Source of the DNA: a virus
Lineage: Duplodnaviria; Heunggongvirae; Uroviricota; Caudoviricetes
IMG/VR virus record: IMGVR_UViG_2718218172_000010
DNA length: 64,000 nt
Direction: 5' to 3' (one strand)
Both the position numbers and the translations under genes were made by a program. Of the stretch, positions 37,397 to 56,289 are shown in pieces. The number at the start of each line of letters is the position of its first letter. Positions within the stretch are counted from its first letter, which is position 1. The notes under the pieces were generated by a model, which worked only from the letters and a program-made list of their open reading frames with translations, ran no database searches and was not told where the DNA came from.

Positions 37397-38006
37397 GAAA
37401 ATTCTCCCTGCTTATCCATTTGCGCAGTACAGAGATGATCCGAATGTTGTTGCGTTCTTTGATGCATACAATGAAATTGCTCAGGAATACCTCGATTCAC
37501 TCAACAATCTGGCATTGCCATGCTGGACATCGGAATCAATAACCGGGCAATTACTGGACTGGATTGCACTCGGGATTTATGGCGTTGAAAGGCCTTTACT
37601 ACAGGTTTCCGAGGAGGCTATTGCACGCGGCGCATACGATACCATTGAATACAATACGATCCCGTATGCAGCAATGCGGAATTACGTTCCAGGGCAGGCA
37701 TCGTATGTCCCTGATGATTATTTCAAACGAATATTAACTTGGAATTTTTATAAGGCTGACGGTTCGCATTTCTGCATTGATTGGTTAAAGCGCCGTGTGG
37801 CACGGTTCATTCATGGGAAAAACGGAATAGACCCGCCATTGCAGCATACTTTTGATGTGAGTGTGACTGTATCGGACAGTGTTTTTTCTATTCAGATACC
37901 AGAGTATGGCGATGGCATAGGCTATTTTCTTAAAGATGCCATTGACCAGAAATATGTAAAACTCCCTTTTATTTATTCCTATGCAACAACGGTGATTCAA
38001 AAATGA
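37380..38006 (+). CDS. tail protein (P2 gpI-like position)
   Basis: ATG at 37380 (track start is TTG); MQYLTEKILPAYPFAQY... Confidence 0.45.
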   Translation: MQYLTEKILPAYPFAQYRDDPNVVAFFDAYNEIAQEYLDSLNNLALPCWTSESITGQLLDWIALGIYGVERPLLQVSEEAIARGAYDTIEYNTIPYAAMRNYVPGQASYVPDDYFKRILTWNFYKADGSHFCIDWLKRRVARFIHGKNGIDPPLQHTFDVSVTVSDSVFSIQIPEYGDGIGYFLKDAIDQKYVKLPFIYSYATTVIQK

Positions 38007-39089
38007 TTCTTGGATTTGGCAATAACGTTGTTTCAGCACTGGCTGGCGATATCACGACGATTCAGACTGATATTCCGGTGATGCCGGGCACGGGAGCTAA
38101 ATTTGCAAAATTGCTTTCTGCCGATTTTGAAAATAAATCGAACGGGCAACGCGTCTATGCAAAAATTACGCTTACCGATAATAAAGAGTCTGCATTTGAG
38201 ATTTGTCACCTGGTATCGGTAAGCGGTGATGTGTTGAAAGTCATTCGTGGGCAGGAAGGAACAACCGCGAAAGGTTGGTCCCTTAATGACGTTGTGGCTA
38301 ACTTTGCCACGCGTGGTTCGGAAAACCATTTCGTACAGATAGCGCAGCTTCAGAGTGGTCATTATATTGCGGGAGTTGCTGGCGGCACTGCAAACGCGCT
38401 GACTCTGGAGCTTCCCGCGACGTTTTTTGTTAATGGAGGTACAGACTGGACGCTACGAACCCCGATTATCGTTTTCCCCGTTCAGAACAATACCAATGCC
38501 GCGACACTTCAATTAACACTGGGCGGAAAGGTTCTTGGTACGTTCCCGCTTTATAAGGGGAACAAGTCCGAGCTGGTAGCGAACGATATCATTAAAGGCA
38601 TTCCCTTAATTTGTCTTCTTGATAGCGAGAAAAGCTATTTCAGCGTGATAAACCCTGGCAATATCTATTCAGATTTTGATCTGCGATATGTAAAAAAATC
38701 TGGTGATTTGATGACCGGAGAACTAAAAATCCGTGGTGTTAATGCACTGAGGATTTTCAACGAAGCTTTTGGCCTGATTTTTCGTCGTTCGGAAGAGTGC
38801 CTGCACTTTATTCCAACACAGGAAAACCAGGGTGAAAATGGCAATATTGGTCCACTTCGACCGTTCACTATTAATCTGCGGACGGGTGAAATATCCATGT
38901 CGCATAAAGTGTCTGTTGGCGGCGGTTCTCAGGTCAATGGTGCGCTGGGTATCGGTGTTCAGAACGCGCTGGGCGGTAACTCAATTGCTTTCGGGGATAA
39001 CGATACCGGCCTGAAACAGAATGGTGACGGCCTGCTGGATGTTTATGCCAATGGTCAGCACGTATTCCGTTTTCAGAATGGCGCGTTAC
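38003..39089 (+). CDS. tail fibre protein, 3' end lost in gap
   Basis: ORF open into the N-run at 39090; Gly-rich repeats. Confidence 0.5.
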
Positions 39090-39189
39090 NNNNNNNNNNN
39101 NNNNNNNNNNNNNNNNNNNNNNNNNNNNNNNNNNNNNNNNNNNNNNNNNNNNNNNNNNNNNNNNNNNNNNNNNNNNNNNNNNNNNNNNN
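39090..39189. other. assembly gap (100 N)
   Basis: Exactly 100 consecutive N. Confidence 0.95.
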
Positions 39190-39476
39190 ATTATCAGGCG
39201 CAACTGAAGCGGCATAATCTGCGTGGAAGTATGAGCGCAAAAGGTTGCTGCTACGATAATGCCTGCGTGGAAAGCTTCTTTCATTCGCTGAAAGTGGAAT
39301 GTATCCATGGAGAACACTTTATCAGCCGGGAAATAATGCGGGCAACGGTGTTTAATTATATCGAATGTGATTACAATCGGTGGCGGCGGCACAGTTGGTG
39401 TGGCGGCCTCAGTCCGGAACAATTTGAAAACAAGAACCTCGCTTAGGCCTGTGTCCATATTACGTGGGTAGGATCA
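39190..39476 (+). mobile_element. IS3-family transposase 3' end and right inverted repeat (fragment)
   Basis: Translation ...[21 protein letters not shown]...[22 protein letters not shown] to stop at 39446; terminal GTGGGTAGGATCA ending at 39476. Confidence 0.65.
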
Positions 39477-39596
39477 CATAACCTGAAATGGCACTAATGG
39501 CCAGAGCTTACTAATACATAATCCCTACAGGATGTAGCCACCAGTTTTGTTCATCCGGTATTCTGATTTGGTAACATGCTCCAGAAAGGAAGAAAT

Positions 39597-40829
39597 ATGT
39601 ACTGCAATGAATTAAAAGAATTTGCGCAAGAGCAGGAACAAAAACTTATCAGTGCGCTTGCTGATACCAGAGAGCACCCGTCCCCCGATGGTGAAACAAG
39701 AAGCCGGGATAATTATCAACGGGATTACGCGCGTATTCTGTATTCATCATCATTTCGCAGGCTGCAGGGAAAGATGCAACTTTTTGAAATTGATCCTGAA
39801 AAATTCAACAGAAACAGATTAACGCACAGTCTTGAGGTTGCTCAGATCGCCCGAAGTATCGCGTCAGACCTCAAACTGATTAACCCGGTGGTGGTTGAAC
39901 TGGCAGCGCTGGCGCATGACATCGGAAATCCTCCTTTCGGTCATTCCGGTGAAAAACTGCTTAATGAACTGTCTGAAGAAATCGGCGGCTATGAAGGTAA
40001 TGCACAGGCGCTACGTATCCTGAGAAAACTGGAGAAGAAATTTTCATACTGCAACGGATTAAATCTGACTCACCGTAGTTTACTTTCGGTTGTTAAGTAT
40101 CCCATCCCCCGCGCTGCAGCTACTGCCGGCAAGTTCATTTATGATGATGATTACTATTTTTACATTAACCTGCTTGCTGAAAATCAGCTCGATCTGAATC
40201 CCGGAGAGAAAACGATTGATGCGCAGATAATGGATCTCGCGGATGAGATTGCCTACGCCGCGCATGACCTGGAAGATGCCCTTAGCAGGAACATGGTCAC
40301 GATTGAAGATATTGAATATGAGTTTCAGATTTCTGACGAATTCCGGGGAGCGAGGGAACAGTTCAGGGAAATCGTTACTCAGTCGAGAAACACCGCTTTT
40401 CAGGCTAACTTACTGAAAACCTCAGAAGAATTTGCCATCATATTCCGCAAGGAGTTAACTTCAAATATTGTCAATCGCCTCGTTGCAGATATTTCTGTAG
40501 TAACGAACCTGAATGGTTTTCAGGAACTGGGGTTCGGGAAACTGAATGCGTTATCCGAAGGACTCAAAAAACTTCTCTTTAAAGTCATCATGCGAAAACG
40601 TAATATCCTCACCTATGAGTTCAGGGGAAATAAAATAATCAGGGATTTATATGACTTTTACAATGAAGGAGAGAATTATAAATTTCTGCCTCCTGAACTT
40701 AAATTCACCTTACCCCAACCAGATTCCTGTATATTTGAAATCAGCAAAAAACGAGCAGTGGTTGACTATATTTCAGGTATGATGGATACATTTGCAGTCA
40801 AGGAATGGGAAACTCACTGTCTGAAGTAA
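39597..40829 (+). CDS. HD-domain dGTP triphosphohydrolase-like protein (Dgt family)
   Basis: RLTHSLEVAQIARS, LAALAHDIGNPPFGHSGE, DLADEIAYAAHDLEDA; ATG with AGGAAG SD. Confidence 0.7.
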   Translation: MYCNELKEFAQEQEQKLISALADTREHPSPDGETRSRDNYQRDYARILYSSSFRRLQGKMQLFEIDPEKFNRNRLTHSLEVAQIARSIASDLKLINPVVVELAALAHDIGNPPFGHSGEKLLNELSEEIGGYEGNAQALRILRKLEKKFSYCNGLNLTHRSLLSVVKYPIPRAAATAGKFIYDDDYYFYINLLAENQLDLNPGEKTIDAQIMDLADEIAYAAHDLEDALSRNMVTIEDIEYEFQISDEFRGAREQFREIVTQSRNTAFQANLLKTSEEFAIIFRKELTSNIVNRLVADISVVTNLNGFQELGFGKLNALSEGLKKLLFKVIMRKRNILTYEFRGNKIIRDLYDFYNEGENYKFLPPELKFTLPQPDSCIFEISKKRAVVDYISGMMDTFAVKEWETHCLK

Positions 40830-40928
40830 CACTGCCGATTACCAGAGGCGCATATTTTCCCGTTATGGTTATTGCGCCTTTATTCCGTTTCGGTGACAGG
40901 TTATTTTAAATATTCTGGAAATGCGTTG

Positions 40929-41498
40929 ATGGGCAAGAACAATTACCCTGAAAATAAATACAGGAAATGGTTTTCCACAGCAATAACATATCTTATTACA
41001 GGTGGTTTGTGCTGGTATATGTTGTGGGCATCCGCTATATCTCATTATACTGTTTTACAAAATACGGTACCTGAATGGACAACATATTTTTGCACCGGTA
41101 TAATCACCGGATCTCTTTCTTTTATTTATGCATTTTATATCCGCACCTTTAACAGAACATTAAAGTCTTTATTAAATGCATTCACGGGGGGATTTTGTCT
41201 TGGATTTATACTGAGTCTGAACTGTTACGATGTCTGTGTTTATCTTTTTCCGGATAAGGTTATTAGCTATGAATCTGAATATGATGTTGTTTTTCCGGGA
41301 CCATCAAGAGGAAAGTATGGACATTGTGAAGCGGGACTCTGGTTGAAAGATCAAAACACTTCCAGATGGATACAACTTTGTACAAATAAAGAGTTCCTGC
41401 GCAGTCACCATAAGCAGGGGATGACAGGTGTATGGGTAACAGCTCGTGTTAATAAAATTGGGTCGTATATCGTGAAATATGAATTTATCTATATGTAG
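40929..41498 (+). CDS. multi-pass membrane protein, unknown function
   Basis: Three or more hydrophobic helices; low GC; 43 nt after dGTPase-like gene. Confidence 0.4.
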   Translation: MGKNNYPENKYRKWFSTAITYLITGGLCWYMLWASAISHYTVLQNTVPEWTTYFCTGIITGSLSFIYAFYIRTFNRTLKSLLNAFTGGFCLGFILSLNCYDVCVYLFPDKVISYESEYDVVFPGPSRGKYGHCEAGLWLKDQNTSRWIQLCTNKEFLRSHHKQGMTGVWVTARVNKIGSYIVKYEFIYM

Positions 41499-41914
41499 GT
41501 AAAAGCTGACATGTTTACCATGGATGAGTTGCTATATTTTTGCGCATACAGGAGTAATCGATTACTGGCTATACTAAAAATACAGAGAAAAGCTATCCCG
41601 GGATAAAGATTACCAACTCACAGAGACAAGCCTTGCCTTATAAACAGATAAATATCATCAACACAGATTCAGAAGCTGAAGCAGTAAGCCATGGTTAACT
41701 GCCTGCTGCCAGTACAGATAAAACAATCAGTCTCGCTGACTGGCTCTTATCACTATCGTTATTTCATAACTCTACAGTATAACTCATTTATCTTTATTGC
41801 CATATATTAGCATGAAGTCAGGCATTTTCATTCCCTGTCGATAATATATCAACTCCGGAGAAGTGCTTGCTATATATTCCTTGATATTAATACAAATTCA
41901 AATATATATTGCTG

Positions 41915-42349
41915 TTATTCATAATCAGGACCAGATGATACTTCCTGAGATATAAGAAAATCATCAAGAGAACCTCCGGCTTTTATAGCCTCTGCTATGG
42001 CCTTAGGCCGACGTCCTTGCCCATTCCAGTACATTCTTTTACCGTTATCGTCATACTCGTATTTATGCCCTCCTGACACACTTTTTCTGCCTGCCTGTGA
42101 TTTTTTGCCAAATTCACGACAAAAATCTTCCAGAGATATACCATGTTCATCCATGAGTGATTTGATAGCTTTCATATTTTCCTTTCGCTCATCACGTTGC
42201 TGAATAGCTATGTCAAAGTTTTCCTTAACCTTATTTAAATCTTCATCAGACATTTCTGTGACCAGTTTTTTAACAAAGTCAATACTCAGAAGTAATGCCC
42301 GGTAAGTAATGAACTCTTCATTTTCAACAGAAATTTTCTTCTTACTCAT
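41915..42349 (-). CDS. H-NS family nucleoid protein paralog
   Basis: C-terminal GKRMYWNGQGRRPKAIAEAIKAGGSLDDFLISQ, matching H-NS DNA-binding motif. Confidence 0.75.
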   Translation of the reverse strand: MSKKKISVENEEFITYRALLLSIDFVKKLVTEMSDEDLNKVKENFDIAIQQRDERKENMKAIKSLMDEHGISLEDFCREFGKKSQAGRKSVSGGHKYEYDDNGKRMYWNGQGRRPKAIAEAIKAGGSLDDFLISQEVSSGPDYE

Positions 42350-43241
42350 TTATTAACACTCAGCTTTTCATTCATTTATGGCAAATCCTATCAGGTGATT
42401 TGCCATAAAAATAATATATGTATCACATTTTTCGACACTTAATCGTCACTTCCTTTCCGAAGGAAAGGCCATCGCAGAAAGTAAGAGAACGTTCTTTGTA
42501 TTTGATACTTAGCGAAATTGCGCCGGTCACTACTTGTCTGAGTCCATTCACTTTCGTTAATGTTAATGAGAAAACCCGCAGTATGATGCGTAATTTCATC
42601 AAACTGATGAAATTCGGTAGCAATCATATATCTGGTGTAGCCTGCATATTCGCAGGAAAATGAATATCGATTATACTAATGGACTAACAATCTCCAGCCT
42701 CTTCAAGAAGATGTTATAAATACACACAGATACTGATTCTCATCCCTTTCAGGCCTGGAACACTATTTCTGCTTTTTAGCATCATCTGGTAGCGATACTT
42801 TCCAGGTATGTCGCCCCATTTTTGTTCGTCTCCATTTTTTTAAGAATTGTGCAAGTAAAAAACTTTTTACCTCTCCTGGAACTGTCGTATTTGCTGATAT
42901 TGTTCGTTTGTCTAAAGAACCTGCTGGTCTTGTCATTAATATTACCTGCTGATTGCTTCACACCCGGGCTCCTCGCACTGCGCGCGGGTTATTGTTTCGT
43001 TTTCAGCCCCGGGGTCGCCAAGGCTCTGGATGGGGTACTACTTCCATTGACAGCATGAGGTAACAATACTGATGGTAACGCTGACCATTAACCGTAAACC
43101 ACAGGGCATTTTCAGTAAATCACCGGCAACGCCGCTGCAGGATAAAATGAACACTGCACACAACGTGAAGGCCAGGGAACGGATACCACAGTTGAACGAT
43201 AAACAGAGCCCTGCTCTGCTGAAAAAACACCGTGGCGGCAT

Positions 43242-43586
43242 ATGACAAAACGCCAGCGTAAAAACCGTAAGCGTATTAATCGTCTTGTGGAACACTGGCC
43301 TGAGTTATTCAACCGGGAAAAACCCCAACCGCGTAAAGTTGAGATACCTGACGACCTGATACAGGATATCGCCATCAGAGAACTGGCGTTTAGCGCAGGT
43401 GCATTACGCGCGGCAGTAGCGTCTTATGTGCAGTCTCCGCGCTATTACCGTGCGTTAATGGCTGGCGGCGCCCGTTACGACCTGAAGGGGCAGCCGTGCG
43501 GGGAAGTGACTCCACAGGAACAGAAAGAGGCAGAGACCCGGCTAATGGTGCTGAATGACCGACAAAAAGCCAGAAAACCTCGTTGA
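43242..43586 (+). CDS. ProQ/FinO-domain RNA-binding protein
   Basis: LRAAVASYVQSPRYYRALMAGGARYDLKGQPCGEVT resembles ProQ RSALRLYTSSWRYLYG...RVDLDGNPCGEL. Confidence 0.6.
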   Translation: MTKRQRKNRKRINRLVEHWPELFNREKPQPRKVEIPDDLIQDIAIRELAFSAGALRAAVASYVQSPRYYRALMAGGARYDLKGQPCGEVTPQEQKEAETRLMVLNDRQKARKPR

Positions 43587-43604
43587 CTACACAACTGCGC
43601 TGAT

Positions 43605-44153
43605 TCACTGAGCTGTAATCAATGTACAGCGCTGTACCGGACGATGGGTAATGGCGGTCACAACCGGTAACCCCAGAGACAATGCGACGGTTTTTAACGC
43701 TACATACTGACCGGATGTATCACCCCGGGCAACCCGAAAACACCTTTCAACCTGGCATTGTCCGCCAGCGCTTATCACCTTCCAGGTCTGTTGCAATAAA
43801 TCCACCCGTTGCGAACATTCTTCATCAACCGTGGCACTGGCCCGCGGATGGCAAATGCTCGTCTGGCTGAGCAGCAACAGGCATCGTATTGTTGCTCCTC
43901 CATGTTGTTCCCGCAACCAGCGTAATACCACCGGCGAGGATGGACAGGCAGTGTGATTACGCTCAGTAATACGTTCGTGCACCTGTCGGTAAAAGGAAGT
44001 ACAGAATGCCTGAATCTGTTGCCCGTTGATGTTTCCTTCAGCCGAATGGAGCGTGAAGTGGACTGCCAGCAGACGCGGCCAGTGGTCCACCGCCTGCTGA
44101 ACAAAACGCCGGATGTCTCCCGGCTCTGAAATTAAGGCTTCGGTTATTTGCAC
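43605..44153 (-). CDS. hypothetical protein (GTG start)
   Basis: 182 aa; AAGGA SD before GTG. Confidence 0.35.
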   Translation of the reverse strand: MQITEALISEPGDIRRFVQQAVDHWPRLLAVHFTLHSAEGNINGQQIQAFCTSFYRQVHERITERNHTACPSSPVVLRWLREQHGGATIRCLLLLSQTSICHPRASATVDEECSQRVDLLQQTWKVISAGGQCQVERCFRVARGDTSGQYVALKTVALSLGLPVVTAITHRPVQRCTLITAQ

Positions 44154-44421
44154 GAAATGTTCCTTTTCAAACCCTGTTGAATTTTGTTAAGCCGGTGCAG
44201 ACACACGGGAAGGTGCGCATCAACACCGGTGTAATGCCAGTTATAAACAATGTGAATGGAATGACGAATCAGTCAGGAAAGAGCTACAACCTGCTGGCTG
44301 ACCGGAGAGGGTCAGCAGGAAAATGAACGGTAATGTCGCCAGCACCAGGGACAGGGCTGATTTCCGCAATACCAGCGCCGGCATTTTGCACATTGCCAGC
44401 GTACCGGCATCACAACACGTT

Positions 44422-44658
44422 TCATGCTGCTGCTCCTCGTGATTCCTCAATTCGCTGCTGCATCCACTGCTCCACTTCACTTTTGTACCAGCGGCTGCTG
44501 CGGCCCAGCTTGATGGGTTTCGGGAAATGGCCTTCACTGATCAGCTTGTAAAACCATTTATCGGTCATGCCGGTGAAACTGGTGATGTAGTTCATGTCGA
44601 TCAGGGGATCCTCGGCACGCAGCAATACACTGTCGTGGCCTGTTATTGAGGTCAACAT
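44422..44658 (-). CDS. AlpA-like excisionase/regulator
   Basis: ...FTGMTDKWFYKLISEGHFPKPIKLGRSSRWYKSEVEQWM, resembling AlpA. Confidence 0.55.
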   Translation of the reverse strand: MLTSITGHDSVLLRAEDPLIDMNYITSFTGMTDKWFYKLISEGHFPKPIKLGRSSRWYKSEVEQWMQQRIEESRGAAA

Positions 44659-44726
44659 AGTCAGAATATCCTCTGTGAGATTTATGAAGGTTGGGCAAAT
44701 GCGGGTGAATCTGCTGAACTGAGCTT

Positions 44727-45431
44727 TCAGAGCTGGCCTGCTACGGGATACCAGGGATTGCCGGCAAGGCAACGGGCTTCCGGATCGCACACTCCACGGC
44801 GATCGCGGGCGAAATCACTGAACGCCCTGATAAGGTCCTTAAACAGGGCTTCGCAGTCCGGTGACCGGCGATCCAGTACCACATCCCGGGTGATCTGCTT
44901 CTGGTACGGCTTTGCTTCACCTGGTGACGCGAACCCCAGCACATTACTCCAGGCATCCAGTATCAACCGATCCAGTTCGGTGCCGTCGAAATACTCCTGT
45001 CTGACGCACAGCACCACGTGGTATTCCGGCTTTTCCGGATGACGGGTCAGGAGCCAGCAAAGGTCGCGTCCGGGTTTCGCATTCATCAGCGCACTGACGG
45101 TTTCGATAAAATCCATACCAAACCAGGTCTGTCTGCTGTTGAAGGCGTTGTCATGTTCCCACGGCAGACGAAGCAGGATCCGCCGTATCCGTGAGCCGGA
45201 CTGCTCACGCAGCGCACGCTCAAGGACGCCGATGACTTTGTTCTGATAAGATGGCCAGAAGGGTGCCAGGCTATAGTCGAAATAAGGAATAGCATTCATA
45301 AGATATGTTCCGTTATGCGCAGCCCACAATGCGTCCTGCCCGTGAATGAGCTGACGTGTTATGGCTTGCGGATGAGATTGATGGAATAAGTGAAGAACTG
45401 AAGCAGAACGGGAAGATAAGGGACAGAACAC
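44727..45431 (-). CDS. YfjJ/YagK-family HUH-like protein (start uncertain: GTG 45431 or ATG 45299)
   Basis: HUH-like YHVVLCV motif; conserved upstream leader shared with 50314-50370. Confidence 0.45.
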   Translation of the reverse strand: MFCPLSSRSASVLHLFHQSHPQAITRQLIHGQDALWAAHNGTYLMNAIPYFDYSLAPFWPSYQNKVIGVLERALREQSGSRIRRILLRLPWEHDNAFNSRQTWFGMDFIETVSALMNAKPGRDLCWLLTRHPEKPEYHVVLCVRQEYFDGTELDRLILDAWSNVLGFASPGEAKPYQKQITRDVVLDRRSPDCEALFKDLIRAFSDFARDRRGVCDPEARCLAGNPWYPVAGQL

Positions 45432-45545
45432 CGGATTCAGGTTCAGGATGAATGATCTCCGTTGACTTCAGTTCACATCATTAATCAATGCGGTAAGTTT
45501 TTACCGACGGAGTGTTTCCAGGAGCGGAGGCTCAGGCCTTAAGCT

Positions 45546-46112
45546 TCAGAAGTGAGGCTTACGAGGACGCCCTGCAGCAGGACGTTCAGGAACTTCATTG
45601 CAGCCGTAGGCACACAGCCCGTCTTTTTGCTCTTCTTTCGCCAGATAATGCAGGGCACCGCGAATATTATCGATGCTTTCAGGATCATTGTGGCGCACAG
45701 GAATGTTGATGTTGTATGTATAATGCGGCTGATATGTACAGCGGTGTGCCGAACCGCTGTTATGCGTAATAGACCGCCAGCATTCCGTAATCCGCTCCGC
45801 AAAGGGATATATTTTTTTAACCCTCTGACGATCGATCCAGAAAACCGCATGCGCATGAAAACCATGATCAACCGTCCATTCAATCACCCAGAAGAAGCCA
45901 ACGATATTTTCAAATTGTTCCACCTGCTCCAGCAGCATACGCAACTGCAATTCAAGCCAGCGATGATCAGGTTGTAAGAAATCAGGCGTATCTTTCCTGT
46001 AGAAGAAATCCATGCGTAAGGCCCGCAGGCAGGAATAGCGTGCCATCATTTGATTGATGTGATTGTCAAGTAAAGCGGTAAAAAACCAGTTTGGTGTGTA
46101 AGATTTAGGCAT
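45546..46112 (-). CDS. YfjJ/YagK-family HUH-like protein
   Basis: AGGAG SD; HAHAVFWI motif; 188 aa. Confidence 0.5.
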   Translation of the reverse strand: MPKSYTPNWFFTALLDNHINQMMARYSCLRALRMDFFYRKDTPDFLQPDHRWLELQLRMLLEQVEQFENIVGFFWVIEWTVDHGFHAHAVFWIDRQRVKKIYPFAERITECWRSITHNSGSAHRCTYQPHYTYNINIPVRHNDPESIDNIRGALHYLAKEEQKDGLCAYGCNEVPERPAAGRPRKPHF

Positions 46113-47650
46113 GTTGATGACTCCTGAAAGTTAATGATGTTTTAAGCTCTGTGAGCGAATTAATGCTTTCGCTCATAATCAGATCTAAAACGGTAATAAC
46201 TTACAGATGGTATTTATCAGGCATGCTGTAGCAGAATGAATACGACGGGTTATTAACGATACGCAGCATTATGCAGAAAGAAATGGATTATCTGATGGTA
46301 TTAGCTAAAGAGATGAGATAAACGAGGAGTAAAGAAAATACAGACTCAATAAAACATCACGAAATACTGCAAAATACGCGATAAAACACCACGTCCAGAA
46401 GGTTAAGAAACATATTGCGACCAATCAATCATAAACTACAAACTTGCTCTCAGTGGTTGTAAAAACTGTGTACAAGGCCAATGCAATAAACTTATATGCG
46501 CTCATTCAATCTGTTCTTAAGGACATGAACATTCACGGCTCACGATAGCAGAATAAAAAATACCACTGACATGATTTTCATCCTGCATCTTAGATAATAC
46601 AACCCAGAACAAACATAATCAGGAATCTCTCCTGTCAATTCCATTGTTTATCCAGCTCTGTTAATCGTTACAGAATCATGGATACCTTATCAAAAAGTAA
46701 ACATTCGGTTAATCAGTAATGACAAAAGAATTGATGTTCATCAGAATAGTTAAAACACTTCAGATAAACAACCATTGTTAAGAAAATACAGCTCATGATG
46801 GATAAGATTAAAATTAATTGCTGTTTCAGTGAAAATGAGAACAGATGAATATCATCAGTAGAATGGTAGAGAATAACTTACCTGAACATCATATGAGTTA
46901 CAGTAAATATGATTGAGGGATGGAATGAATACGATAACAAGAGTAATACTAATGGAATGTGTAACGATAGAGTGAATATAATCGTAAAGATAGAGAGTGA
47001 GTAAAGACAGGAAGTAAATAACAATAGAGATTGTATGAAAAAGGGAGTGAGTATAATAATAGTAATAAACCTAAATTAAAATTATCCATGTTTAATGAAT
47101 GGAAATGAGAAATCCGCCGTTCTGAACATATTCCGGACAGTTCCATTCCCTTACAAAAAAATATCAAATTAATTTTCTTCAACCCTCTATTAAAACATGA
47201 ATCGCATCCCTTATCAGTAACAGACGAATAATAATTTGTTATTCAGAAAGAGAGCGACATCGTCATATACCCCAGCACTCATCACGGCAAGAATCAAACA
47301 AACTTATATATATAAACTCACACAATATGGTTAATGATTAGCTTTAATCCATGTTTAAAACAATCTTTCGATTACCTTTCGTTATATCTGAAACGAAAAC
47401 CACTCTTCCACCAGTGCGCACATCCCAGCATTCAATCAGCTCTGACAGCAGGTCATTATGAAAACAAAACCAAATCACAGATGTAGTGTATGTGCTGCTA
47501 CTGTTGCTACCATAGCGATTTTTTCAGAGAAATTTTCATTCACACCCAATAATTGGTGAATATTTGCACATGTGCAGGATATGCAACACACCTTATCATC
47601 AACCTTCATTCGAAGGATTATGATTTTCGTTTTCTACTCGCAAAATTGTT

Positions 47651-49255
47651 TTAAAATAAGGTGTAAGCTGAGGAATCAGGTGTAAATGACTGAATTAATG
47701 CCGGTGGAATAACAACGGAATATGTTTTCGCATTATGGTTATACTGGGGTGGAACAATATCAAACGGTTCGTAAGACATTGCGCCGAAAGGAAGGATGTA
47801 ACCATTATTATCAAGAGCAGAAACATAAAGTGCCTGATGCGATCGCATCTTGATGATACGGAAATAATTCTGAGCGATTAACTGATTGAGTACAGGTGTA
47901 AGTTTTTCTGCTCTTCTCAGACGATTGGGACCATATCTTTCAATGTCTGTTTTCCTGATAGCACGCCAATTATTCTGCCTTATTCGGGTCATAATCCATG
48001 CATACAGTTCACAGGCATCCTGTTCAAACTGGCATCGTGCAGACATGGGATAAAATATTGTGCTCGCCTCCTCCAGATACCAGTCCATGAGATGCATAGC
48101 TTTAAAAAGCGCAATTGATTCAATTTCCTCAGCATCTTTATAGCAATAGCAGGTGAATATTCCAGCTATCCTCAGTATATTAGAACCTGCTTTCAGAACA
48201 ATATCTCTGATGTGTTCCCACTCCCCTCCTGCAAGCGCTTTTCTTTCAATCTTAATCTGGTTTTCCTGCCACTCCCCCAACGCTTTCTTTGCAAGTTTTA
48301 ATGTTTTCCTTTCGGTGCTCATACCGGGGGAATTAATGTTATGGCTTAACAGAAATCCGTTAATCTTTTTATGAAACTTCTCCAGGGTTGGTTTTGTTCT
48401 GAACTCGCCTCTCGTATAATCCCGTACCCGGGAAGGACTTCCGGTCTGACTGAACAGAAACCGGGAAAGAAATCCGCTTCCCCACGCCAGTACGTCATTT
48501 TTATTTATATAATTCGTAAAGACATCCGGCTGGGACATTAACGAAAATGTCAGACGTGGCGTGATATGGTATTTCTCGTCAGCCCGTCCAAAATCAAACG
48601 GTTGTCCACTCCATGCTTTATTCAACAGGCCCGGATAATTTTTCAGATAGCTTCTGAAAAAAGTGACCGCCTCGTCAGAAATAACCCCTGCCTCAGGATG
48701 TTCATTGAGCCCTTCCACAAGCGCTTTAAGCGAAACATCTTCATAGATAAAATTCGGTCGAACCGGACGTGTCGGTTTATTTCTTTCGTGATTACGCAGC
48801 GCCTCTTCTTCCTGTTCCCCCGGATACCCCCGGTTAACAGTCTTTCTTAAATTGGCAGCAAGCGCTTTCTGCCGGGTATTCCAGATCTGTAGTTCAGTCT
48901 TATAATCTTTGTTTCTCTCTTCGTATTGTTGAATGAGTCGATCGGCAAATTCGTAACAGGGGTTCATCACCAGTCTGTTTATCGTTGTTTTTCCCGCGCC
49001 TGGCTCTGCGATTGCCAACAGATAAAGTGAGCAGGGTTCCGGCATGTTGGTGTGAGGATGAACAACGTCAACCAGTGACTGACAGGAGAGTGAGAGCGTT
49101 GCCAGTACAGTATTAAAAATGAGCTCCAGCGGAAGTTGGGTACTTTCATATAAGTCGTCAATGAGATATGCAAGCTCACTAGGAAATAATCTGTAGGTTA
49201 AATCAGCTGGGAAGTGGTGGGATGTCTGCAAGGATTGCATATAAGCGGAATTCAT
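47651..49255 (-). CDS. P-loop NTPase, DUF3987/YfjI-like
   Basis: 534 aa; Walker A AEPGAGKTT. Confidence 0.5.
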   Translation of the reverse strand: MNSAYMQSLQTSHHFPADLTYRLFPSELAYLIDDLYESTQLPLELIFNTVLATLSLSCQSLVDVVHPHTNMPEPCSLYLLAIAEPGAGKTTINRLVMNPCYEFADRLIQQYEERNKDYKTELQIWNTRQKALAANLRKTVNRGYPGEQEEEALRNHERNKPTRPVRPNFIYEDVSLKALVEGLNEHPEAGVISDEAVTFFRSYLKNYPGLLNKAWSGQPFDFGRADEKYHITPRLTFSLMSQPDVFTNYINKNDVLAWGSGFLSRFLFSQTGSPSRVRDYTRGEFRTKPTLEKFHKKINGFLLSHNINSPGMSTERKTLKLAKKALGEWQENQIKIERKALAGGEWEHIRDIVLKAGSNILRIAGIFTCYCYKDAEEIESIALFKAMHLMDWYLEEASTIFYPMSARCQFEQDACELYAWIMTRIRQNNWRAIRKTDIERYGPNRLRRAEKLTPVLNQLIAQNYFRIIKMRSHQALYVSALDNNGYILPFGAMSYEPFDIVPPQYNHNAKTYSVVIPPALIQSFTPDSSAYTLF

Positions 49256-56189: not shown

Positions 56190-56289
56190 NNNNNNNNNNN
56201 NNNNNNNNNNNNNNNNNNNNNNNNNNNNNNNNNNNNNNNNNNNNNNNNNNNNNNNNNNNNNNNNNNNNNNNNNNNNNNNNNNNNNNNNN
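56190..56289. other. assembly gap (100 N)
   Basis: Exactly 100 consecutive N. Confidence 0.95.

Follow-up and report, generated by a model that had tools for sequence, protein, structure and literature searches.

An H-NS-family gene and a frameshifted FinO-family gene probably meet at a seam between two modules of an Escherichia coli genomic island

We analysed a window of 64,000 nucleotides of DNA (IMG/VR record IMGVR_UViG_2718218172_000010), in which an H-NS-like gene and a ProQ/FinO-domain gene are transcribed divergently. The region that holds them is likely the seam at which two modules of separate inheritance meet in a chromosomal E. coli island, and the FinO gene carried here is most likely inactive. 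On this reading, the two genes stand back to back only because a swappable cargo block abuts a conserved backbone. Both ORFs had been assigned to their families in the initial annotation, and Pfam family matches confirmed the assignments, as the strands of the ORFs did the divergent orientation. The features on which the argument rests are the following:

39576-40829, plus strand: anti-phage-type dGTPase, 417 aa (PADLOC dGTPase, E 1.5e-109; TIGR01353, 316 bits against a cutoff of 152)
40872-41498, plus strand: 208-aa ORF of no family, convergent with the H-NS-like gene (189 aa from 40929 in PGAP)
41915-42349, minus strand: H-NS-family gene, 144 aa, intact, with an N-terminal H-NS-type domain and a C-terminal DNA-binding domain
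42350-42455, minus strand: conserved 5′ region of the H-NS-like gene, presumed promoter and 5′ UTR, aligned with a 75%-identical homolog
42375-42409: perfect 13-bp inverted repeat, TTTATGGCAAATC-N9-GATTTGCCATAAA, 25 nt upstream of the H-NS-like ATG
42449-42470: 7-bp hairpin CCTTTCC-GAA-GGAAAGG where the conserved promoter region ends
42456-42793: AT-rich non-coding stretch seen solely together with this H-NS-like cargo block
42794-43028: FinO-side non-coding segments; nested homology breakpoints lie at 42794 and ~42901-42903
43029-43071, plus strand: the only upstream stretch common to all FinO-gene alleles examined, with a GAGG Shine-Dalgarno sequence at 43057-43060
43072-43245, plus strand: 5′ fragment of the FinO-family gene, a 57-aa ORF encoding the conserved N-terminal peptide MVTLTINRKPQGIF
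43211-43220, plus strand: tandem CTGCT-CTGCT, a 5-nt insertion in alignments with the intact alleles of related loci L007 and L008
43242-43586, plus strand: FinO-domain ORF, 114 aa, whose start codon corresponds to Met56 of the intact protein
43605-44153, minus strand: backbone gene of the UCP030791 family, 182 aa, convergent and 18 bp past the FinO-gene stop (PF27752 in a precomputed annotation)

The window DNA matches an E. coli genomic island that is integrated at tRNA-Phe in strain cq9, where a 100%-identical stretch and its flanks are found. The cq9 island has the make-up of tRNA-integrated CP4-like islands, with an integrase beside the tRNA gene and AlpA, YfjI, Gp2/YagK-like (YagK/YfjJ) and CbtA/CbeA genes, and also carries KlcA antirestriction and RadC genes; this context upholds the horizontal origin first proposed for the region. 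The same gene set characterizes CP4-57/CP4-6-like islands and the pheU/pheV/selC islands of STEC, from which the island of the window differs in nothing essential; a 'ProQ/FINO family protein' and a 'dNTP triphosphohydrolase' are both among the entries of an earlier survey of STEC pheV islands (PMC6174562). The contig at 39190-56189 (17 kb) represents the middle of the island only, and in the cq9 annotation the ends of this fragment adjoin IS3-type and IS66-type elements. Colinearity of the whole window with cq9 was ruled out by BLAST and by runs of N, the window being a scaffold of three contigs.

In the arrangement that we propose, the backbone to the right of the seam would run from the FinO-family gene through the convergent UCP030791 gene, an AlpA-like regulator and Gp2/YagK-like genes to YfjI, and to its left would lie a cargo slot holding strain-specific, mostly defence-related gene blocks. 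The block found here would comprise the anti-phage dGTPase, the 208-aa ORF, which gave nothing above threshold in Pfam, NCBIfam, PADLOC or PHROGs, and the diverged H-NS-family gene, which brings an AT-rich promoter region of its own. None of the PADLOC models covers the H-NS-like, FinO-like or UCP030791 protein. Of 5426 complete E. coli genomes, 1102 (~20%) contain homologs of the FinO gene, on chromosomes only and at up to 8 places per genome, and the UCP030791 gene adjoins the FinO gene in every related locus that possesses one. The H-NS-like gene lies beside the FinO gene in only ~200 genomes (201-206 with the full arrangement); at the same position elsewhere we found Dnd genes (L004, L007, L014), IS66 (L008-L010), AAA/MarR genes (L002) or IS1 with sul2 (L003), and in L011, L013 and L015 Kiwa genes take the place of the FinO gene itself. 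This distribution does not bear out a functional pairing of the two genes. The dGTPase belongs to the same cargo block as the H-NS-like gene and again stands beside the 144-aa gene in L012, where the arrangement recurs at 97.9% identity. The H-NS-like subfamily also recurs as island cargo in another slot ~4 kb off, L012 holding both copies, and a related 146-aa H-NS-like gene occupies a different slot from the 144-aa gene. Among GTDB representative genomes, a search for related loci with one protein found none, and a search with the alignment found Escherichia ruysiae only.

The 144-aa protein of the cargo block is matched by PF00816 over all 38 profile positions (E 2.2e-12, 46.9 bits against a cutoff of 25.6) and by PF22470 over residues 19-76 (E 6.8e-8, 32.7 bits against a cutoff of 24.5). 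Its place in the H-NS family is marked by the Q/R-G-R minor-groove motif of the C-terminal DNA-binding domain, and its C-terminal motif YWNGQGRRP aligns to TWTGQGRTP of StpA and H-NS. PDB matches were obtained to the C-terminal domains of StpA (E 8e-8) and H-NS (E 2e-6), StpA is colinear with the protein across residues 21-133, and the representative of a 572-member cluster is 99% identical to it. The scores lie below the NCBIfam equivalog cutoffs for both StpA (62.7 against 202 bits) and H-NS (34.4 against 211 bits). The AlphaFold model has four helices, then a beta-hairpin and two further helices, at a mean pLDDT of only 51. Like Hfp/HNS2 (serU/asnW and EARL islands), HlpC and the plasmid proteins Sfh/Hpp, this is an H-NS-family protein on a genomic island in AT-rich surroundings, and like horizontally acquired H-NS homologs it keeps the QGR motif, which is retained in nearly all described H-NS homolog clades (PMC7544231). 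Hfp, however, has 134 aa and shares 57.7% identity with H-NS along the whole chain (PMC2814080), whereas only the 55 C-terminal residues of the island protein align to H-NS in BLASTP, at 47% identity; the length (~134 aa) and full-length identity to H-NS (~58%) of the Hfp/HNS2 clade are thus not those of the 144-aa protein. Judged by its sequence, the H-NS-like gene is highly diverged yet intact.

On the backbone side, the 114-aa ORF contains a complete FinO domain (PF04352, E 7.8e-22, 77.8 bits against a cutoff of 27, positions 4-107 of 109, that is 104/109). ProQ, FinO and RocC were matched in the PDB at E 1e-10 to 1e-8, NMB1681 was a further PDB match, and the NCBIfam FinO subfamily was matched at E 1.8e-17; the protein scores below the NCBIfam cutoffs for FinO (63.7 against 136 bits) and ProQ (45.3 against 127 bits), and its AlphaFold model has a pLDDT of 56.5. 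With FinO of F-like plasmids, which is associated with FinP antisense RNA and traJ and has FopA and PcnR as relatives, the island protein shares the FinO domain (PDB 1dvo, E 1.7e-10), carriage by a mobile element and a basic N-terminal extension before the domain that is predicted to be disordered in a low-confidence model. Unlike plasmid FinO, to which it is ~31% identical and whose cutoff it does not reach, it is encoded only on chromosomes, in islands, and its allele in the window is frameshifted. The same FinO-type domain stands at the N terminus of ProQ, which serves E. coli and Salmonella as a chromosomally encoded global RNA chaperone (PDB 5nb9, E 8.5e-11); ProQ Lys35, Arg58, Tyr70, Arg80 and Asp82 are matched by residues of the island protein in the alignment, the equivalents of Tyr70 and Arg80, conserved residues that bind RNA 3′ ends, lying in SP(H/R)YY and ARYDL (5nb9 alignment with the L002 allele; the residues are the same in the window allele). 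In contrast to ProQ, the island protein lacks a linker with a Tudor-like C-terminal domain, falls below the ProQ equivalog cutoff and is accessory, its gene being present in ~20% of genomes.

Intact alleles of the FinO gene encode 158-185 aa, their start being the ATG at 43072 behind a GAGG. The 57-aa ORF of the window, which RefSeq annotates as a hypothetical protein, has a start and an N-terminus identical to those of the intact 158-169-aa alleles. The CTGCT duplication shifts the frame and splits the gene into the 57-aa and 114-aa ORFs, which overlap in ATGA; a single uninterrupted frame for the N-terminal peptide (MxxLTINRKPxGI) and the FinO domain, the mark of the island FinO subfamily, is absent from the window, and both lie on one chain in the 22 full-length homologs selected for alignment. 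Because the peptide is conserved in full-length homologs of 59-91% identity, the full-length form appears to be the selected one. Two near-invariant positions are changed as well in the window allele, by L86R, which places an Arg at the hallmark Leu of the PLK(V/I)GI motif, and by G106S, and split alleles have 1-7 residues never found in the 22 full-length homologs. The pN/pS ratio of the window allele against the closest intact allele is 0.93 (6 non-synonymous and 2 synonymous substitutions) and that between intact alleles is 0.28, values that point to relaxed constraint but rest on small substitution counts and phylogenetically non-independent sequences. The CTGCT lesion recurs in L004, L012 and L014, with an additional internal stop in L004; L003 carries two other frameshifts, and the alleles P0267 and P0268 contain indels. 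Given the 5-nt duplication, the near-invariant substitutions and the absence of a 218-bp upstream segment, we regard the FinO gene of the window as most likely inactive. Pseudogenised proteins had been named as grounds for abandoning the proposed pair, and half of this is seen: the FinO gene is frameshifted but the H-NS-like gene is intact.

A functional split gene, in which the 57-aa ORF is translated from the GAGG and reinitiation at ATGA yields a minimal 114-aa RNA-binding protein, is conceivable but unlikely. Such a product would resemble the minimal homologs NMB1681 and Lpp1663, the whole domain is open with the ProQ Tyr70/Arg80 equivalents kept, and the ATGA stop/start overlap is a layout compatible with translational coupling, but no Shine-Dalgarno sequence precedes 43242. 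The presence of the N-terminal peptide in all full-length homologs implies a requirement for it in cis. Split alleles of this kind are common, an 80-mer spanning the duplication matching 318 of the 5426 complete E. coli genomes at 99% identity or more; a second, independent frameshift (−2) just upstream of the same Met56 is about as common (roughly 300 complete genomes), and the intact long-linker version occurs in only 2-3 complete genomes (2 at 99% identity or more). This commonness could mean tolerance or even selection instead of decay, and in L014 the duplication coexists with a FinO domain identical to that of the intact L008 allele. However, the recurrence at Met56 is partly an artefact of ORF calling, since any disruption within the first 55 codons gives the same Met56 ORF, and split alleles have decayed further, through the L004 stop, the second frameshift of L003 and the P0267/P0268 indels as well as L86R and G106S in the window allele. 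A truncated FinO domain made by translational reinitiation at the ATGA overlap would be, at best, the output. We are more doubtful still of a broader proposal, that the island protein constitutes a third class of enterobacterial FinO-domain RNA chaperone whose splitting upstream of Met56 is selected rather than a sign of decay and yields a minimal FinO domain or the N-terminal peptide alone; its product could then target RNAs of the island or of the host, perhaps in concert with island H-NS-like silencers.

The H-NS-like and FinO-domain ORFs are 892 bp apart, in agreement with the 900-bp intergenic region first described, but the final 170 bp (43072-43241) already belong to the coding sequence of the FinO gene, at its 5′ end, and the non-coding gap is therefore 42350-43071, 722 bp. 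The AT-richness ascribed to the whole spacer holds for its left part (37.3% GC, 42350-42794) but not for its right part (45.1%, 42795-43071). The gap is a mosaic with homology breakpoints at 42794, ~42902 and 43028. The segment 42456-42793 is present only in the ~206 genomes that have the whole block, its ORFs being without a family match, and at 43028/43029 the 218-bp segment of other alleles is absent from the window; the shared stretch 43029-43071 was delimited by alignment and BLAST breakpoints. A RefSeq-annotated minus-strand ORF at 42763-42936 loses its frame in L002 because of a 1-nt indel. We checked spacer ORFs of at least 20 aa; the seven largest, including the 57-aa FinO fragment, gave no Pfam match at E≤1, and two that were run against NCBIfam gave none. 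As part of the seam, the gap is probably left-over junction DNA of cargo exchange and not a dedicated regulatory or sRNA locus.

It had been suggested instead that the spacer holds an sRNA partner of the FinO-like protein. A search of 38000-48000 against Rfam at E≤1 returned only a chance snoRNA match outside the region. Promoter and terminator scans of 41400-44300 stood at shuffle expectation (5 against 5.2 and 5 against 2.7±1.7, respectively), those of 43500-48200 were at or below it, and 42940-43075, folded on both strands, had z-scores of -0.01 and -0.11. On the plus strand we noted a promoter-like site at 42649-42677 and a sole, weak terminator-like hairpin of 5 bp at 42972-42988; neither a conserved promoter with an intrinsic terminator and U-tail nor a known RNA family was found in the spacer. 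Covariation analysis is powerless here because the ~200 genomes with the arrangement are nearly identical. At the sequence level, a spacer sRNA is unsupported, being without an Rfam match, a conserved ORF, a conserved hairpin or an above-chance promoter or terminator signal, and an unstructured or strain-specific transcript may exist. A co-evolved divergent regulatory pair, with the spacer encoding an sRNA or sites for the FinO-like protein, is very improbable. The divergent genes, the long gap, the recurrence in L012 and the dedicated RNA partner that FinO-family proteins of mobile elements usually have (PMC9977716) would fit it, as would the plus-strand promoter-like site and hairpin; but the supposed transcript would span the breakpoints at 42794 and ~42902, the hairpin is disrupted in L002, and the FinO gene is frameshifted. 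Moreover, only ~200 of the 1102 genomes carrying the FinO gene show the adjacency, and the related 146-aa H-NS-like gene is located in another slot.

Within the cargo block, homology to the 75%-identical H-NS-like homolog of other islands ends at 42455 upstream and at 41919 on the other side. The perfect 13-bp inverted repeat in this conserved region is the sole candidate regulatory site and may be an operator or a 5′ UTR stem-loop: its fold z-score is -3.0 on the minus strand and -5.5 on the plus strand, its core AAATC-N9-GATTT is unchanged in the diverged homolog, where the outer arms are only partly complementary, and a search for further copies of the palindrome found none, leaving one copy in the window. 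The 7-bp hairpin at 42449-42470 has no T-run on either strand and is therefore not an intrinsic terminator; in L012 its loop is TTC in place of GAA and the stem is intact. That the H-NS-like gene and its flanks form a small mobile or invertible cassette bounded by a 13-nt inverted repeat (41930-41942/42778-42790) can practically be dismissed, for although 12 of 13 nt are complementary and the right arm ends 4 nt from the 42794 breakpoint, one such match is estimated to be about chance in 2.3 kb, the left arm lies inside coding sequence, homology to the related cassette ends at 41919 and 42455 and not at the arms, and no recombinase gene is adjacent.

The H-NS-like protein would bind AT-rich DNA through its QGR motif and, by co-oligomerising with H-NS/StpA or working alone, would damp or retune expression of island DNA, and its own control would most likely reside in the 13-bp inverted repeat that precedes its start codon. 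In intact islands, the FinO-family protein would be expected to bind terminator-type hairpins of some island RNA.

The finding is one of ordinary island architecture, and its significance is small as it stands: a striking gene pair has come about as a by-product when cargo was exchanged in a common E. coli island. Both the FinO subfamily of the islands and the H-NS-like subfamily of 144/146 aa are widespread, and no study of either was found in the literature searched. For annotators, many RefSeq pairs of a 57-aa 'hypothetical' and a 114-aa 'ProQ/FINO' protein are halves of one frameshifted gene. Immediately ahead of the FinO gene lies a cargo slot in which defence systems (dGTPase, Dnd and Kiwa) accumulate, together with other cargo such as IS elements and sul2.

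In the window, the H-NS-like and FinO-family genes lie where the backbone of a common E. coli island meets an exchangeable block of cargo. The ORF list and the Pfam scan agree with the initial annotation on two divergent ORFs with H-NS and ProQ/FinO domains, and the main features are as follows.

39576-40829, left neighbour in the cargo block: anti-phage-type dGTPase (PADLOC, E 1.5e-109)
41915-42349, minus strand: H-NS-like gene, 144 aa; Pfam PF00816 (C-terminal domain, E 2.2e-12) and PF22470 (N-terminal domain, E 6.8e-8)
43211-43220, plus strand: tandem CTGCT-CTGCT, adjoining an AA-to-GC change (alignment with L007 and L008)
43242-43586, plus strand: FinO-domain ORF, 114 aa; Pfam ProQ/FinO PF04352 (E 7.8e-22, profile positions 4-107 of 109)

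Chromosomes of E. coli cq9, U90, ETEC4085, O111:H8 99.1145 and others contain the 2.2-kb region at 100% identity. The cq9 copy lies inside an island integrated at tRNA-Phe, beside yqgA, and this setting bears out the proposed horizontal carriage. A survey of STEC pheU/pheV/selC islands lists 'ProQ/FINO family protein', 'dNTP triphosphohydrolase', 'YfjI', 'Inovirus Gp2' and 'KlcA' (PMC6174562). The cq9 island contains:

integrase, type I restriction-modification system, thymidylate synthase, dGTPase, H-NS-like gene, FinO-family gene
UCP030791-family gene, AlpA-like regulator, Gp2/YagK-like genes, YfjI, GTPase
DUF932, antirestriction protein, RadC, CbeA/CbtA

Runs of exactly 100 N at 39090-39189 and 56190-56289 mark the window as a scaffold built from three contigs; the H-NS-like/FinO region falls within the 17-kb middle (island) contig. 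A prophage from a different chromosomal location makes up the left contig, which in cq9 lies approximately 1.9 Mb from the middle contig; across 18000-39089 the cq9 annotation of this prophage has an anti-CBASS Acb1-family protein, baseplate J/gp47 and the terminase large subunit. The middle contig opens with a remnant of an IS3-family transposase (39190-39446), and the dGTPase gene comes directly after it. A GC-rich terminator-like hairpin, GCCGGGAGACATCCGGC then GTTTTGTT (44108-44124, minus strand), sits downstream of the AlpA-like gene and 30 nt within the annotated start of the UCP030791 gene; either the true start of that gene is further downstream (170-aa variants exist) or the hairpin is an attenuator. 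The AlpA-like regulator (44422-44790, minus strand) is a mechanical ORF of 122 aa from GTG that overlaps the upstream ORF 44727-45431, and RefSeq gives 78 aa (44422-44658). The approximately 1.5 kb (46113-47650) that separate the Gp2-like gene (45546-46112) from the YfjI gene hold no annotated gene, at about 30-41% GC in the first 900 bp profiled; the matching slot in the related island loci L012-L016 holds an Mrr-like endonuclease and a 146-aa H-NS-like homolog.

Of 5426 complete E. coli genomes, 1102 carry FinO-gene homologs, always on the chromosome and in up to eight places per genome; plasmids and phages are essentially devoid of them, distant FinO relatives excepted. The H-NS-like gene, spacer and FinO gene are found together in only 201-206 genomes against those 1102, which leaves the suggested functional link between the two genes unsupported. 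The related loci carry other cargo directly upstream of the FinO gene:

L004, L007, L014: dndB-E genes
L008-L010: IS66
L002: AAA protein and MarR
L003: IS1 and sul2

Three loci (L011, L013 and L015) have no FinO gene and carry KwaA/KwaB (Kiwa defence) after the UCP030791 gene (approximately 14400-16030); the backbone can therefore do without the FinO gene, which in L016 is reduced to a 3′ remnant. With a dGTPase here and Dnd and Kiwa at the equivalent position elsewhere, the position upstream of the FinO gene is a cargo slot in which defence genes are common.

The H-NS-family gene is intact but uncharacterised. In a solved-structure search the C-terminus of its product matched the StpA and H-NS DNA-binding domains, with YWNGQGRRP aligned to TWTGQGRTP of StpA/H-NS. 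StpA is colinear with the protein, which scores far under the StpA and H-NS equivalog cutoffs; against H-NS itself, only the last 55 residues align (BLAST, 47% identity). Hfp, the known island-borne E. coli H-NS homolog, is 134 aa long and 57.7% identical to H-NS throughout (PMC2814080), and because both its size and its full-length identity differ, we rejected this assignment for the 144-aa protein. The AlphaFold model is of low confidence (pLDDT 51) and gives just the expected secondary-structure order. The protein is one of an Escherichia-centred subfamily whose members are 144 or 146 aa long; the 146-aa member, 61% identical to the 144-aa protein, is the commoner (4925 collection blocks). 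Because the 146-aa homolog occupies another slot of the same island family, approximately 4 kb away between Gp2-like genes, and L012 carries both copies, H-NS-like genes are recurrent cargo in these islands without a fixed relation to the FinO gene.

The approximately 900-bp AT-rich intergenic region initially described corresponds to an ORF-to-ORF distance of 892 bp, but its right end is FinO-gene 5′ coding sequence, and GC content is 37% over 42350-42794 and 45% over 42795-43071. The remaining spacer is a patchwork. Its left 445 bp (42350-42794) are found only alongside this H-NS-like cassette, and of these only the approximately 105 bp nearest the H-NS-like start codon, as far as 42455, are shared with a 75%-identical homolog. 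The right part, which travels with the FinO gene, has nested breakpoints at 42794 and approximately 42901-42903 and a 218-bp difference at 43028/43029; the approximately 43 nt upstream of 43072 are the only stretch common to all FinO-gene alleles examined. Differences from L012 are evenly scattered, with one 16-bp indel and no extra-conserved island. This indel (42816-42831), between the near-repeats CCATTTTTGTTCGTCT and CCATTTTTTT, looks like replication slippage in junction DNA. A 7-bp hairpin, CCTTTCC-GAA-GGAAAGG, has an unchanged stem in L012 and the reverse-complemented loop TTC (42459-42461), a signature of hairpin-mediated inversion or template switch.

No part of the spacer looks like an RNA gene, and the sRNA partner once envisaged there found no support. 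The spacer has no Rfam match, the frequency of promoter-like and terminator-like sites does not exceed that in shuffled sequence, and folding of 42940-43075 gave z-scores of -0.01 and -0.11. The sole plus-strand terminator-like hairpin, at 42972-42988, has 5 bp, among them a G-T pair; two of these pairs are lost in L002, where the annotated minus-strand ORF 42763-42936 is also out of frame; small spacer ORFs have no family match. A single element stands out: 25 nt upstream of the H-NS-like ATG, a perfect 13-bp inverted repeat (42375-42409) accounts for the low fold energy across 42350-42470 (z -5.5 and -3.0). Its core, AAATC-N9-GATTT, is identical in a diverged homolog and its outer arms retain only one of three changed pairs, a pattern that would be somewhat more in keeping with a protein-binding site than with an RNA stem.

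The RefSeq annotation of other genomes shows, across the right end of the supposed spacer, either a pseudogene marked 'frameshifted' or a ProQ/FINO protein of greater length. Intact alleles encode 158-169 aa (distant full-length homologs, 158-185 aa) from an ATG equivalent to 43072 and preceded by GAGG. DNA alignment with the intact 169-aa alleles of L007 and L008 revealed 5 extra nt in the window at 43211-43220, so that the frame is shifted and the FinO domain becomes an ORF of its own, 114 aa long. The first 57 codons stop at a TGA overlapping the Met56 ATG (ATGA, 43242-45), and RefSeq names the halves 'hypothetical protein' and 'ProQ/FINO family protein'. Across 22 aligned full-length homologs (59-91% identical), an N-terminal peptide, M-x-x-LTINRKPxGI, and a block, TPWRHMTKRQRKNR, are conserved, indicating from sequence conservation that the joined protein is the form under selection. 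Solved-structure matches of the FinO-domain protein are ProQ, FinO, RocC and NMB1681; plasmid FinO (approximately 31% identity) and the ProQ N-terminal domain are nearest, with scores under both curated cutoffs. Its AlphaFold model is of low confidence (pLDDT 56.5), with the N-terminal 49 residues disordered and otherwise the expected secondary-structure order.

Pseudogenization therefore concerns one of the two genes: the H-NS-like gene is intact, whereas the FinO-family gene is frameshifted and probably inactive. L004 carries the same duplication plus an internal stop in the FinO domain, the L003 gene has two other frameshifts, and other 111-114-aa database entries have indels or scrambled stretches within the domain. 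The window allele bears L86R, in the PLKVGI motif common to ProQ and RocC, and G106S, which occur in none of the 22 full-length homologs; against the closest intact allele it has 6 non-synonymous and 2 synonymous differences (pN/pS 0.93, versus 0.28 between intact alleles). Inspection found no Shine-Dalgarno sequence ahead of 43242, and according to a review of the family, chromosomally integrated FinO-like genes often erode (PMC9977716). The absence at 43028/43029 of the 218-bp upstream segment of L003, L004 and L007-L010 is weak evidence because the intact L002 allele also lacks it. However, the 114-aa ORF is open and retains the residues aligning to ProQ Tyr70 and Arg80, and the ATGA overlap would allow reinitiation. 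Of 5426 complete genomes, 318 have an 80-mer bearing the duplication at ≥99% identity; a different lesion, a -2 frameshift 4 nt ahead of the Met56 ATG, is about equally common, and the intact long-linker sequence reaches ≥99% identity in only 2. Recurrence at Met56 is partly an artefact, since any lesion within the first 55 codons gives the same ORF call. Weighing both sides, we regard inactivity of the split allele as likely.

The +5 (CTGCT duplication) and -2 frameshifts are independent and lie within approximately 30 nt upstream of Met56 (window 43211-43245; L003 6389-6897); each occurs in approximately 300 complete E. coli genomes, and RefSeq treats the +5 allele as two genes. What novelty remains in the locus lies with its two protein subfamilies, both uncharacterised, and with how unusually often the FinO gene is split; other strains offer the better study material.
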